Below are positions 5,375 to 58,852 of a stretch of 64,000 nt of DNA, one piece after another. Under the pieces are notes generated by a model, which saw nothing but the letters and a program-made list of their open reading frames with translations, searched no databases and was not told where the DNA came from. Source of the stretch: Dictyostelium discoideum. Its lineage: Eukaryota. Location of the stretch: NCBI GenBank assembly GCA_000004695.1, contig CM000150.2:3648001-3712000 (forward strand), written 5' to 3'. The translations under genes and the position numbers were made by a program. Position 1 is the first letter of the stretch. The number at the start of each line of letters is the position of its first letter.

Positions 5375-7402
<2,028 letters not shown>

Positions 7403-37707: not shown

Positions 37708-38529
37708 ATGACAGATATTAATCGTCATAGATATAGAGATAGAAGTGATAGTAGAAGTAGAGAAAGATATGAAAATAGACATAAATTATATAGAGATAGA
37801 AGTAGAAGTAGAAGTAGAAGCATAGATAAAGAAAGATATCATGAATCTGATAGACATAGATTATACAGAGATAGAAGTAAAAGTAGAGAAAGAGATAGAA
37901 TAAATACTAAACATGATAAAAATAATCTAGAAATAGATAAGAAAAGGAATACTGAAAGAGATGAAAATAAATATAGAGATAGAGATAAAAATAGAGGTAG
38001 AAGTAGAAGTAGAAGTAAAAGTAGAGAAAGATATAAAAAATATAAAAGAAATAGAAGTAGGTCTTCATCATCCTCATCATCCTCTTCATCTTCATCATCC
38101 TCATCTTCATCATCATCTAATGAAAGAAAAAAGAGAAAGAAGAAAAAGAAAGAAGAAAAGAGAAAAAGAAAAAAAGAAAAAAAAGAAAAAAAAGAAGAAA
38201 AAGAATTAAAAAAGAAATTAAAAAAAGATTCAAAAAAATCATCATCAACAGTTTCAACAACCACAACAACAACAACAACAGCAGCAGCAGCATCAGCAAC
38301 AAACACATCTAATTTAGTCAACAACAATAATAATAAAAAAAAAATGGGACCCATATCTGATGAAGATTATGAAAAGTTGAAAAATTCGTATAGAGAAGTA
38401 TTTGATGAAGATAGTGGTCGTACTAGAGTTGTGAATGGTAATGGTGAAATCGTTGAAAGAATAGTTAGTCGTGAACAACATAAAGCAATCAATTATATTG
38501 CTACTCACCACCCAACTCAATTTAAATAA
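37708..38529 (+). CDS. Arginine/serine-rich protein, ARL6IP4 (SR-25/SRrp37)-like
   Basis: The N-terminus has RS/RD/RE dipeptide repeats, a poly-Ser run and a K/E-rich stretch. The C-terminal block GPISDEDYEKLKNSYREVFDEDSGRTRVVNGNGEIVERIVSREQHKAINYIAT matches the conserved ARL6IP4 C-terminal domain. Confidence 0.7.
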   Translation: MTDINRHRYRDRSDSRSRERYENRHKLYRDRSRSRSRSIDKERYHESDRHRLYRDRSKSRERDRINTKHDKNNLEIDKKRNTERDENKYRDRDKNRGRSRSRSKSRERYKKYKRNRSRSSSSSSSSSSSSSSSSSSSNERKKRKKKKKEEKRKRKKEKKEKKEEKELKKKLKKDSKKSSSTVSTTTTTTTTAAAASATNTSNLVNNNNNKKKMGPISDEDYEKLKNSYREVFDEDSGRTRVVNGNGEIVERIVSREQHKAINYIATHHPTQFK

Positions 38530-48189: not shown

Positions 48190-48483
48190 TTAAAAAAAAA
48201 AATTAAATATAATTGGTTGTTGACCATTTTCGATAAAAGAAAAAGAAAAGAAAAGAAAAGAAAAGAAAAGAAAAGAAAAGAAAAGAAAAGAAAGAGTAAT
48301 AAGAGTAGGGAAAAGAAAAGAAACGAACCATATTGCGTGAATTATGCCTGGGATCACTCCGATTATAAACAATAAACAGTTTATTACTAATGACTTTCCA
48401 CAGCCCCTAACAAAAAAAACGGAAAGAGGAGAGAAAATGAAAGCTAGAATTAAAAGTAAGATGGTTCCTAAAGCATGTCCCAT
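48190..48483 (-). CDS. Pmp3/UPF0057 (RCI2-like) plasma-membrane proteolipid; 3' end uncertain
   Basis: MGHALGTILLLILAFIFSPLSVFFVRGCGKSLVINCLLFIIGVIPGIIHAIWFV matches the two-helix Pmp3 family (…LPPLAVFL.RG…D.ilnilLtilGwiPGiihAly…). The ORF then runs through the (CTTTT)n microsatellite (SFLFFSFLFF…), so the real C-terminus is probably shorter. Confidence 0.65.
   Translation of the reverse strand: MGHALGTILLLILAFIFSPLSVFFVRGCGKSLVINCLLFIIGVIPGIIHAIWFVSFLFPTLITLSFLFFSFLFFSFLFFSFSFIENGQQPIIFNFFF
48235..48294. repeat. (AAAAG)12 microsatellite
   Basis: A perfect pentanucleotide array aaaagaaaag… lies inside the 3' part of the Pmp3-like ORF (antisense CTTTT encodes the SFLFF repeats). Confidence 0.9.
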
Positions 48484-51522: not shown

Positions 51523-52100
51523 ATGACAGATAATAATAATTTAGATAGTTTAATAATTGATAAAGATGAATATTTAAATAGTCCAATGAATGTGGTTGAT
51601 AAATTATTTAAATTTGATCAAAACAATTTAAATAATGGGACTGTGTATAAAAAGTTTGAAAATGTAATTTCAGAAGATCAAATTTATAAATCAATACCTT
51701 TAGTTTCAACAATTAATCAATGTGATTTAAATAGTGGTAAATTAGTTAAAATTAGATGCATGATTCAAGATATTTTCGATCCACAATTTTGTCCATCTTT
51801 TAATAAAATTAAAAATATTGAAACAAATGAAATTGTATGGTATAATAAAAGTTTTAAAAAATAAATAAAAAATAAAAAATAAAAAAAATAAAAAATACAA
51901 TCTCTCTCTCTCTCTCTTTTAAAATTAAAATACTAATAAATTAATTATAATAATAATAATTATAGAGATTAGAAGCATCAAAATATAAAGATAAAATCAA
52001 TTTAAATGATTGTGAAGAGTTAATTTTCGATTCTTTTGATTCTTCAACATTTGATAAAACTATATTATATTGTATTCCAATACCCTGTGAAAATAAATGG

Positions 52101-53970: not shown

Positions 53971-55348
53971 TTAAATAGAAGTAATAGCAGTAGTTGAGTT
54001 ATCTAAATCAACATCTTGTTCACTTTGTAATTCATCTTGTTGAGATTCATCTTGATCATCATTATTATCATCATCTTCTTCATAGTATTCTTCATCAGAT
54101 TCACCAAATCTAATAGTACCATCTTCTTCTGCAATGAAACCCATTGATAATTTTTTGGTAACTTTTAATTTTGGTTCAACTGGTGGTAAACTATAATATT
54201 GTTTTGGTTTTTCTGGTTCTTTTTCTTCAACAATTGGTACTTTTTCTTTTTCTTTTTCTTCTTGTTGTTGTTTTTCTTTTTCTTTTTCTTTTTCTTTTTC
54301 TTTTTCTTCTTTCTCTTGTTGTTGTTGTTTTAATTCTTGTTGTTTTAATTCTTGTTGTTTTAATTCTTGTTGTTTTAATTCTTGTTGTTTTTCTTCAGTG
54401 ACTTCTTGTTTAACAATTGGAACTCCGGTTGAAGAAGATTCATCATTCTTTTCTTTTTTATCAGAATCAGATTCTTTTAATTTTTGTTGTTTAGAGATTG
54501 AAAGTGAAGTTGAAGTATGATTCATAATATTTGAAGGGTTAAGAGAAATATTTTCTAAAGAGGAATAAATCGATGGAAGAGTTAATTTATCGAAACCTAA
54601 TGGTGTTGATGGACTTGATGGTGTTTTATCAAACATTCTAAATGTTTTTGATGGAGTGGATGGTTGATGAAAAAATGCTGAAATTGGTGATGGTTCTGAC
54701 ATATTTGAAGAGTTATTATTATTATTATTACTACTATTGTTGTTATTATTATTATTATTATTATTTACAGTATTGTCATTATCAGCACTAATATTGTTAT
54801 TGCTATTGTTGTTGGTGTTGGTATTATTTACATTTTTATTAAATCTTAAAACAACTTTACCAGATGAAATGGTAATTTGTGGTGAATCAGGTGGTTGATG
54901 TAATGAATCATTACCTAATTCAGTACCCATTGGTGATGGGAATGGTAACATTGGTGAGTGATATAATTTAAGATCTTGAATTGGACTTGCTGGGAAATGG
55001 TTGGATGGAAATAATACATTACTGCTACTTGCAACAGCTGGTGTTGAACCAGAATTTGATGAACTAGTTGTTGTAGTTGTTGTGGTAGTGGTTGTAGTTG
55101 TAGTTGTGGTTGTTGGTGTATGTGGTGTTTGAGTTGATGATGATGATGTAGTATTACCAGAAAGTTGTGATGGAGTATGTGGTACGAAATCAACTTGTGC
55201 TGGACTATCAGCTTCATGGAAAGCTTGCTTTGGTGTTGAGAAATAAAGTGGTGGTGTACCATGTTGATGAATATTCATTAATGGATGATTATGAATTGAT
55301 GAGAATGATGCTGGTGATGTGACACTATGATTATTCTTATTATTATTA

Positions 55349-55380
<32 letters not shown>

Positions 55381-55586
55381 CTTTGAATCATCCTCATTGT
55401 CATCATCATCATCATCTTCACCTTCGTCATTGCTATTACCATTATCAGCGATTTGATTGGTATGATAATTTGGATAATTATTGTTATTAGAGTCAGCAAC
55501 TTCATATTCTACTTGAATTTCATCACTATTACTATCAGCTGGATTAGAATTTTCATCATCTTCATCATTACCCATTGATTGATCAC

Positions 55587-55638
<52 letters not shown>

Positions 55639-56077
55639 GTTATTATTATTATTATTGTTATTATTATTATTGTTATTATTATTACTATTATTATTATTAT
55701 TATTATTTTCATGGAATTGTGAAAATGGTAAATTTGGTGATTTGAAAGTTGTCTTTGGACTTTGTGGAACCTTATTATTTGCTAAAATTACTGGTGTTGT
55801 AGTTAATTTCTTTTTATTATTTTTATCTTCTTGTTGTTGTTGTTGATTTTGTGGTGGTTGTTGATTTTGTTGTTGTGGTTGATGTTGTTGTTGTTGGTTT
55901 TGTGGTTGATGTTGTTGTGGTTGTTGATTTTGTTGTTGTGGTGGATATTTAACTTCATTACTATTATTATTATTATTATTATTATTGTTGTTATTATTAT
56001 TATTATTATTATTCATATTCATATTCATATTATTATTGTTATTATTATTGTTATTATTATTATTATTATTATTGTTA

Positions 56078-56115
<38 letters not shown>

Positions 56116-56915
56116 GTTGTTATTATTATTATTATTATTATTATCAAAATTATTATTTAAATTATTATTATTATTATTAATTAATTGAATATCATCGGAT
56201 TGATCAGATTTCTTAGAATTTCTTTTCTTTTTTACATAACCATCTTCAAATTTATGAATATTTCTTTTGTGTTCATTAAGATCGGATAATTGAACGAAAC
56301 GGCTATCACAATCAGCATAATCACAATGGAATGGTTTTTCACCGGTATGTTTATAACGAATGTGATGAATTAAGTTGTATGCACTTTTTAATGGTTTATC
56401 GGCACGGTTACATCCAACCCATTCACAATAGGATTCACTCTTTTTACCTCTTTGTTTCTTTACATGATCAGCGATATGTTCGCCCAAGTCTGATAACTTT
56501 TCAAAGATAGCTCCTAAATTGCAATCACTCCATTTACATTCGAATGGTCCTGGAGGATCTGATGATTTTCTTTTACGTGGTTTTCTATTTACAGTTGTTA
56601 TTTGTTGTGATTGTTGTGATTGTTGAATATCAGTAGTATTTTGTTGTTGTTGTAGTTGTTGTTTTGATGGTGATGATGGTGCATTTGTAGTAGGAGTGGT
56701 GGTAGTAGTTGTAGTAGTTGTAATTGGTTTATTAATATTAGTTGGTTTAGTATCTTCATTCTTTTTACTTTTACTAGTTCTTTTGACTGGCTTCTCTGGT
56801 ACAGCTTGTGATGAAAGTGGTGGTGGTAATTGTGGTTGTGATTGATCACCAAAAATATTTGATGGAGATGGTGATGAATCAACATCACTGCTACTCATAT
56901 ATTCTTGGTCAATAT

Positions 56916-56960
<45 letters not shown>

Positions 56961-57320
56961 GCATGTTATGCATATTATGTTGTTGTTGTTGTTGGTGGTG
57001 GTGATTATGATTATTATGATTATGTTGTTGTTGATCATTATACAATTTTTGTTTCTTATATAGTCTATCATCACCTACTAAAGAAGTAGTATTATTAGAA
57101 ATATTAGATGATTTTGACTTTTGGGATGTTGAATCCCAATATTGGTCAAAATCATCACTAAAGAAACTATTTGGAGTACCATTATTATTAACACTATCAT
57201 TATTATTATTATTAACTTTATTCATCATATTTGGATTCGATGTCATCTCTTTAAATAAATGAGAATAAATCGATTCATCAACAGATTTAATAAAACTATT
57301 ATTATTATTATTATTACTAC

Positions 57321-57372
<52 letters not shown>

Positions 57373-58047
57373 GCCGATTGGTGGTTGTGTTTTAATTGGT
57401 ACATTTATCTTCTTTCTTCTAGAGAGAGTTCTATTGTTACTAACTAAAGATTACCCAAGAGAAACAAAGAGAGGAAAGAGAGGGGAGAGAGGAGGGAGAG
57501 AAAGCCAAAAGGTAAAGATACATAGCAAAGAGAGGGGGAATGGGAAAGCAGCAAGAAGAAGCAAGTACAAACAAAGAGAGGATGAAAAATAAATAAAAAA
57601 TAAATAAATAAAAAAGAAAAGTTAGAATTTGTATATAAAATAAAATAAAATTTTCTTTCAAAAACTTACTTGGATCATATGGATCTAAAAGATGATTAAA
57701 TTTAATATGGCTTGTTAAACTTTGGAAATCTTTTAAAACAACACCACAGTAATCCCAATCACAAGTTGTAAAAGTACTACTTGTACCATTACTATTTCTA
57801 ATATTAATAGTTGGTTTATCCTTGAAATGATCATTTCTAAAATGAATCCAAAATTCAGAGATTGCATAGAAATTACATTCACAACCATTCCATTTACAAA
57901 CAATAGCTTGATGTGATTGTGATTCATCATTATTGTTATTATTATTATTATTATTATTATTTAAATTATGTGTATGATTATTAATACCATTACTATTATT
58001 TAAACTATGAATACTTAAACTACTATTATTGTTATTATTATTATTAC

Positions 58048-58084
<37 letters not shown>

Positions 58085-58852
58085 TAAATTATGAATACTC
58101 GATAATAAATGATGATTATTATGTGTATTATGATTATGATTGTGATTATGATTATGATTATGATTGTGATTGTAACTATTAATTAAATGTTGTATATTTT
58201 GTAAATTCATATGATTATTATGTGGTGTAGTTTGTGGTAAATGTATATGATGTAATTGTTGATTTAAATTTAAACCATTTAATGTAGAAGTGTTACCGAG
58301 TAATGATGACAAAGAGGTATTCAAATAAGATTGTTGTGGCAAGCTACTTTGTAAGGCGTACAAGAAATCTGGTTGTAATGTAATACTATTGGCATTTGGG
58401 TCTTGATCGAATCCAAATAAAAAACTTGGATTAGTAAATGCTGATCCACTACTACTAGTTGTTGATGGTGCATTACTAACTGTGGTGTTACTATTTGTAT
58501 TATTATTATTTGTATTATTATTATTGGTATTATTATTATTATTATCAACTACATTATGTGAAATTATACCACCTAATGTATCAATTAAATGATTTTGATA
58601 ATGTGGTGATGGTATTGAATTTATTTGTTGTTGTAATGATTGTTGTTGTTGTACTGGTGGTTGTGGTGGTAATGATTGTTGTTGTTGTATTGATTGTTGT
58701 TGTTGTGCTTGTTGTTGTTGTTTTGTATTTGATAATGCCATTAATAATTGATCGAGACCAACACCAATGGCACCAGCAATCTTATTTAAAGAATTTATTG
58801 ATGAAGAAGATAAGCTTAGACTATTTACATTATTAATTGAGCTAGTAGTCAT
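53971..58852 (-). CDS. Large (about 1550 aa) GLI/ZIC-like C2H2 zinc-finger protein with extensive N/Q/T-rich low complexity; exons 58852..57670 and 57443..53971
   Basis: The upstream ORF (ATG at 58852) carries fingers AIVCKWNGCECNFYAISEFWIHFRNDHF…TCDWDYCGVVLKDFQSLTSHIKFNHL and ends DPYDP at an A|GTAAGT donor (57669). After a 226-nt intron, the acceptor tctttag|TT at 57444-57445 opens a frame that runs without Met or stop into the 1091-aa ORF. That ORF has a second finger cluster FECKWSDCNLGAIFEKLSDLGEHIADHV…YCEWVGCNRADKPLKSAYNLIHHIRYKHTGEKPFHCDYADCDSRFVQLSDLNEHKRNIH. Phase 1 is consistent (4656 nt). Confidence 0.72.
57451..57590. repeat. Purine-rich GA/GAA/GGA tract (CT-rich on the coding minus strand) inside the zinc-finger gene intron
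   Basis: aagagaaacaaagagaggaaagagaggggagagaggagggagagaaagccaaaaggtaaagatacatagcaaagagagggggaatgggaaagcagcaagaagaagcaagtacaaacaaagagagg is roughly 45% G. This is highly atypical for this genome and for its introns, which are normally >90% A+T. Confidence 0.8.

Follow-up and report, generated by a model that had tools for sequence, protein, structure and literature searches.

On the minus strand of the window (the whole 64,000-nucleotide stretch of Dictyostelium discoideum DNA analysed here) the ORF list holds two large open reading frames, one of 470 aa (58852..57440) and one of 1091 aa (57246..53971). Do these two frames belong to one intron-split gene, and what is the long C/T-rich tract found at the 3′ end of the intron that would separate them? 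A sequence-only reading had proposed a single gene encoding a zinc finger protein of roughly 1550 aa, joined across an intron unlike those normally found in Dictyostelium. The answer that we consider probable, if well short of certain, is that this is one known gene with a conserved U2-type intron, in which the tract is a tolerated extension of the pyrimidine tract that has grown by duplication and slippage.

The two open reading frames and their product

Removal of the predicted 226-nt phase-1 intron, which joins 57670 to 57443 (Table 1), yields a 4656-nt coding sequence and a protein of 1551 aa with one terminal stop. This length agrees with the earlier estimate, and the two frames are in phase across a GTAAGT donor and a TCTTTAG acceptor at the positions originally proposed. 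Exon 1 stops after the first base of a codon, and an isoleucine codon (a/tt) is split across the junction. Past the acceptor the frame is open for 65 codons without a methionine, counted from 57441 up to the downstream frame's first ATG (57246), which bears out the long Met-free stretch described in the sequence-only reading. Only the first AG (57445-57444) is workable as an acceptor, because use of either of the two that follow (57441-40, 57432-31) would change the frame and run into a TAA within a dozen codons.

Table 1. Positions of the gene, intron and tract features in the window
Feature	Position	Strand	Details and basis
Exon 1	57670..58852	-	394 codons and first base of codon 395; ORF list, translation, alignment with H. 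album P0001
Exon 2	53971..57443	-	last two bases of codon 395 to stop; ORF list, translation
Zinc fingers 1-2, CKWNGC...H...H and CDWDYC...H...H	57692..57898	-	~aa 319-387; translation
Exon-2 fingers	~56254-56541	-	Pfam zf-C2H2_15 and zf-C2H2
Predicted phase-1 GT-AG spliceosomal intron, 226 nt	57444..57669	-	in-phase join; homologous introns in L001 and L002
5′ splice site GTAAGT	57664..57669	-	sequence
3′ splice site TCTTTAG	57444..57450	-	first AG after 57656
TTCTAAC, candidate branch site	57621..57627	-	only match in the intron to the wCTAAy consensus (PMC2483917)
C/T-rich tract, 139 nt	57446..57584	- (sense strand)	85% pyrimidine, 44% G+C, no AG
14-nt direct repeat TCCTCTCTTTGTTT	3′ copy 57462..57475; 5′ copy 57569-57582	-	exact, 107 nt apart
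Degenerate units begun by CCTCTCTTT(G/C)	starts 57581, 57535, 57483	-	motif matches
Perfect homopurine mirror repeat GAAAGAGAGGG-(9 nt)-GGGAGAGAAAG	57474..57504	+	11-nt arms; encloses irregular A(G)n block 57477-57500

The product of the gene would be a C2H2 protein of the nuclear type, with tandem-CWCH2 fingers in two blocks. The first tandem CWCH2 finger pair is encoded by exon 1, together with an N-terminus of low complexity; exon 2 supplies the second such pair, a third finger and long stretches of low complexity. A search of the joined protein with the domain models of Pfam, a check that had been suggested along with the original proposal, returns C2H2 fingers only (zf-C2H2_15 and zf-C2H2, with weak matches to Zap1_zf1 and FOXP-CC); the weak FOXP-CC match falls on fingers 1–2, at aa 317-346. 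Among solved structures the top matches are GLI (2gli, 8e-19) and ZIC3 (2rpc, 2e-16), with WT1 and AEBP2 also matched. The tandem CWCH2 motif is matched by all four CxWxxC fingers (CKWNGC/CDWDYC and CKWSDC/CEWVGC), all of which have H-x(3-5)-H. The suggestion that both exons carry GLI/ZIC-like fingers is upheld by these matches and by the motif.

The resemblance to the five-finger GLI and ZIC proteins (2gli, 2rpc) lies in block 2, where a CxWxxC...CxWxxC pair is followed by a canonical finger. The difference is that block 2 has three fingers and not five, and that the protein has a separate N-terminal two-finger pair. The Zic/Gli/Glis class is defined by five consecutive fingers of which the first two are tCWCH2, whereas here two fingers are N-terminal and three C-terminal. 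The authors of the motif likewise kept the Dictyostelium tCWCH2 genes outside the class (Hatayama & Aruga 2010, PMC2837044). The protein is GLI/ZIC-like, yet it is outside the Zic/Gli/Glis class.

Two D. discoideum tandem-CWCH2 proteins have been described (Hatayama & Aruga 2010, BMC Evol Biol 10:53; PMC2837044), and in Additional file 10 of that paper the peptides ‘DdHp2 ZF12’ and ‘DdHp2 ZF34/ZF5’ are printed, with DdHp2 listed as tCWCH2. DdHp2 ZF12 corresponds to the fingers of exon 1 and ZF34/ZF5 to those of exon 2, and the sequences are identical bar a few machine-reading errors. DdHp2 is the same gene as that in the window, already treated there as one protein, although the paper (PMC2837044) gives neither gene structure nor intron nor intron composition. 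Because its peptides are those of both frames, the gene model is already known: a protein with both finger blocks is in the public record and nothing is added to it here.

Orthologues and the position of the intron

Homology searches gave two orthologues, one from the dictyostelid Heterostelium album and one on a Logan contig (L002), and brought up no closely related Dictyostelium species. The H. album protein, PPL_00688 (P0001; 534 aa), holds both finger blocks in one polypeptide. Identity to the window protein is 46% for block 1 (H. album only) and 56-57% for block 2 (both orthologues). The H. album intron (contig L001, 6590-6655) is 66 nt long, runs from GTAAGT to TATAG and is in phase 1; its donor hexamer is that of the window intron, and it splits a cysteine codon (t/gt) which aligns with the split isoleucine codon of the window gene. 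In this comparison the similarity runs across the junction (ISN-NRTLSRRKKI vs CANLDDSLYKSKKF). Contig L002, from a eukaryote and 43% G+C, encodes a finger pair, an intron, a second intron and a three-finger block, and when spliced gives a clean 397 aa. Its first intron (6950-6993; 44 nt, GT-AG, phase 1) lies four residues past the last histidine of finger 2, an offset of 3 residues.

The two orthologues resemble the window gene in having the same two blocks in the same order and, just past finger 2, a GT-AG intron in phase 1. They differ from it in the shortness of that intron, which in both contains no C/T-rich tract, and in the length of their proteins, which are 3-4 times shorter and contain no long Asn/Gln/Thr runs. 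As judged from these alignments, the predicted intron after the first finger pair is an old one, conserved in position and in phase 1.

Some further features of the relatives were noted. The second intron of L002 (7257-7299; 43 nt, GTATGT...CTAAC...GCAG, phase 0) lies between the finger blocks, at a position which is intron-free in the window gene and in H. album. The annotated second intron of H. album PPL_00688 (L001 7195-7498, 304 nt) looks doubtful: read-through after ...KKKR gives VKPINNN and a stop, and it may be that the final 158 residues are wrongly included in the database protein. A scan of metagenomes with the two-species alignment found no relative. In JGI metagenome 3300030743 an intronless 445-aa relative (P0009; L004 112-1449) has two full three-finger blocks, each a tandem CWCH2 pair and one finger. 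This arrangement suggests that the two blocks may have arisen by internal duplication, with the third finger of the N-terminal block lost in dictyostelids.

Could the two frames nevertheless be separate genes, the upstream one ending at the TAG at 57442-57440 and the downstream one starting at the ATG at 57246? Each frame is complete from ATG to stop, as this would require. However, in two other species a single protein holds both blocks, its gene having an intron that agrees in place and phase, and in D. discoideum itself DdHp2 has both. The 76 codons that follow the donor encode hydrophobic junk, and the Met-free codons after the acceptor fit poorly with an independent start. We regard two separate genes as extremely improbable. 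The occurrence of both finger blocks in one protein in H. album PPL_00688 and L002, the homologous phase-1 introns and the DdHp2 peptides all support the original claim that the 470-aa and 1091-aa frames would form one intron-split D. discoideum zinc finger gene.

Splice signals and composition of the intron

The donor, which matches the consensus of the species, the AG acceptor, the restoration of the frame and the conserved position are those expected of a U2-type intron. The join itself is made by homology, and the transcript is presumably spliced at the GTAAGT and TCTTTAG sites. Published statistics on 17,300 D. discoideum introns give 89% A+T, a median length of 103 nt and a mean of 143 nt (PMC2483917). 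Against these figures the present intron is atypical: it is 226 nt long and 69% A+T (T 54%, C 23%, A 15%, G 8%), falling to 56% A+T in its 3′ 139 nt. Other frame-compatible candidate introns in the window, as predicted by our own script, are 102-129 nt long and 3-14% G+C. The contention that the intron is unlike normal Dictyostelium introns holds against both the published statistics and the rest of the window.

The first 85 nt of the intron are ordinary A/T-rich sequence and contain the candidate branch site TTCTAAC. The remainder is almost wholly the C/T-rich tract (57584-57446; A 8, C 48, G 13, T 70), and the values in Table 1 match the C/T-rich run of about 45% G+C that had been described in the 3′ half of the intron. 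G+C content peaks at 46% in the 100 nt from 57450 to 57549, against 20.9% for the whole window, and in a scan of the 64 kb no other 100-nt stretch combines a purine or pyrimidine content of 85% or more with a G+C content of 30% or more. Long homopurine or homopyrimidine runs are themselves common in the window, where they are A- or T-rich. The 39-nt pure purine run on the plus strand of the tract (57466-57504) is, at 51% G, the sole G-rich one in the 64 kb, the other long runs having 0-21% G. The tract is genuine, locally unique and unusual for this genome. Elsewhere in the window very long A- or T-rich homopurine and homopyrimidine runs, the longest of 84 nt and some of them (A)70 or (AAAAG)n arrays, are found at 463-534, 38122-38205, 48235-48296 and other positions; such runs are typical of the non-coding DNA of the genome.

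In D. discoideum introns poly-T is concentrated 15-40 nt from the acceptor and the branch consensus is wCTAAy (PMC2483917). By our own script, ~178 nt separate the branch A of TTCTAAC from the intron's 3′ end, which places it far beyond this poly-T zone. Candidates nearer the acceptor are poor, namely TTTAC at ~66 nt and GGGTAAT at ~7 nt. There is no AG from 57655 to 57446. The absence of AG from the tract means that no alternative acceptor or cassette exon is possible within it, and an internal cassette exon or rival acceptor was ruled out for this reason. The AG-free interval is no rarer than chance (P = 0.13 in mononucleotide shuffles); as it is expected from composition, it is not evidence of selection.

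The fold of the 226-nt intron is no better than those of shuffled sequences (MFE -10.9 kcal/mol, z = 0.08; z = 0.76 with flanks included), which rules out an intronic hairpin RNA as well as a fold drawing branch site and acceptor together. Rfam covariance models gave no match in the intron at E <= 1. A sub-threshold match to snR39, a C/D-box snoRNA, was seen in exon 2 (57066-57162, minus strand; 23 bits against a gathering threshold of 40, E = 0.73) and is most likely due to chance.

Mammalian introns are known which have distant branch points and long AG-exclusion zones, and in these the first downstream AG is used. The intron in the window resembles them in its far-upstream consensus branch site, its long pyrimidine-rich AG-free interval and its first AG as acceptor. 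It differs in that its AG-free interval is no longer than composition predicts, and its branch site is only a candidate. On our preferred reading the AG-free, unfolded tract would act as an over-long polypyrimidine tract. The spliceosome would assemble on TTCTAAC, which presumably serves as the branch site, or else on a weak site further towards the 3′ end, and would then use the first downstream AG at 57445-57444. The tract is read as tolerated, and not as required, because it is unstructured and AG-free and any branch point leads to the correct first AG. Against this reading stand the branch-to-acceptor distance, which is outside the usual zone, and the fact that the sole 3′-proximal site approaching the consensus, GGGTAAT, leaves only ~7 nt to the AG. 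In addition, one might expect non-coding sequence of 44% G+C to decay in a genome of 21% G+C if it is neither recent nor selected, which leaves room for a function.

Origin and possible functions of the tract

How might such a tract have arisen? The motif CCTCTCTTTG occurs in three exact copies and one mismatched copy, all within the tract, against 0.96 copies expected in the window. When cut at this motif, the tract falls into three degenerate units of ~50 nt (46, 52 and 40 nt). The alignment of unit 1 with unit 2 gives z = 3.4, and that of the last unit with the sequence upstream was equalled or beaten in 21 of 1000 shuffles; these repeat statistics are modest, at ~0.01-0.02 by shuffling. 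Unit 2 includes GTATCTTTAC, which resembles the live acceptor GTAATCTTTAG and looks like a copy of it from which the G has been lost. On the preferred reading a short A/T-rich intron end would have grown, in this lineage, into the 139-nt C/T-rich, purine-poor tract. Growth would have occurred as the terminal ‘CCTCTCTTTG...GTAATCTTTAG’ module was duplicated locally in tandem, with the upstream duplicated acceptors disabled and CT slippage adding the remainder. That CT slippage happens in introns here is indicated by a (CT)9 microsatellite at 51902-51919 (plus strand) in a probable intron (~51836-51975) of the neighbouring plus-strand gene; as in the tract, the pyrimidines are on the sense strand, and an ACTAAT branch-like motif lies just downstream. 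The repeats point to duplication as the probable origin of the tract.

The same repeats bear on another possible origin, a recent foreign or repeat insertion: either an interstitial A(G)1-8 repeat left by break repair or a fragment of a mobile element with a 14-nt target duplication. A(G)n, with n = 1-8, is the irregular terminal repeat found at the rDNA palindrome and chromosome ends of D. discoideum (2019, PMC6759168). The plus strand of the tract has the same irregular grammar over 24 + 10 nt, since 57477-57500 parses perfectly as (AG1-4)9 and 57529-57538 as AGAGAGGGGG, and irregular A(G)n runs are seen nowhere else in the window; moreover, ~93 nt are bracketed by the exact 14-nt direct repeats. 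The tract block is, however, short, interstitial and set within other CT-rich sequence, and it is much less G-rich than the terminal repeat, on which primers are far richer in G (GAGGGGGGAGGGGGGAGGG). A(G)n fits only 34 of the 139 nt, and mostly as AG units. Neither poly(A) nor a terminal inverted repeat accompanies the tract, the 64 kb contains no second copy, and local tandem duplication explains the pattern of repeats at least as well. We judge an insertion to be highly improbable.

A further alternative is that the tract works as DNA, as an H-DNA (triplex) or G-quadruplex-prone element or as a site for a GA/CT-binding factor, and modulates transcription or replication through the gene. H-DNA motifs are homopurine-homopyrimidine mirror repeats in which a short spacer separates arms of ~10 nt or longer. 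The tract contains a mirror repeat with perfect purine arms, and also the window's one G-rich purine run, but arms of 11 nt with a spacer of 9 nt are borderline for H-DNA. G4Hunter gives 1.48 and 1.28 on the plus strand of the tract, two of the seven matches of at least 1.2 in the 64 kb, and the mean for D. discoideum is 0.078 hits per kb at a threshold of 1.25 (PMC4770238). Both maxima nevertheless lie below the value of at least 1.5 which, along with the alternative of four runs of G3+ with short loops, is taken to define a G-quadruplex-prone sequence, and the G3 runs are not four closely spaced ones, with gaps of up to 37 nt. The G-rich strand also serves as the template, which makes the transcript C-rich. 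We could link none of the known GA-binding factors of Dictyostelium to the tract, and the element is not conserved in the orthologues. A role at the level of DNA appears quite improbable.

Alternatively the tract could be a selected regulator of splicing, a single-stranded CU-rich platform for PTB-, PCBP- or U2AF-like proteins which tunes the pairing of branch point and acceptor. An intron left in place would then give a shortened protein, with fingers 1–2 as its only fingers, that ends at the TAG at 57442-57440. Several features are consistent with such a role: the sense strand carries the pyrimidines, which abut the 3′ splice site, the intron RNA is unstructured, a consensus branch site lies 178 nt upstream, and high G+C persists within an A/T-rich genome. 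The intron also has no stop in the frame of exon 1, so retention yields the 470-aa ORF. In that product a very hydrophobic tail of 76 aa (SKFLKENFILFYIQILTFLFYLF...) would follow the fingers. Yet the open frame is fairly likely from composition alone (~0.13, our own estimate), and both it and the AG-free zone are thus expected from composition (P ~0.13); the tail encoded by the retained intron is hydrophobic nonsense, and both orthologous introns are without the tract. In the literature on intron retention and intron features in Dictyostelium, no mention of such tracts was found. A splicing regulator of this kind is in our view unlikely.

Put more generally, the tract may be a lineage-specific cis-element under selection. 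Most plausibly it would then be a platform for a pyrimidine-binding protein that puts removal of the intron under control, the gene switching between the full five-finger form and the form with fingers 1–2; otherwise it would be an H-DNA or A(G)n element affecting transcription. We consider selection for an element of either kind distinctly unlikely. No evidence was found for a role of the tract beyond lengthening the pyrimidine tract of a conserved intron, and it probably has no further function.

The tract is therefore a small curiosity. If it were conserved or regulatory it would represent a rare intronic control element in D. discoideum, though nothing found here requires this; and if it were a selected cis-element it would be an unusual regulatory device, the introns of Dictyostelium being otherwise short and A/T-rich. 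What the locus does indicate is that a D. discoideum intron is able to carry ~140 nt of pyrimidine-rich sequence with 44% G+C between its sole consensus branch site and its acceptor. If the distant branch site is truly used, the intron would constitute a natural test of the AG-scanning range of the Dictyostelium spliceosome.
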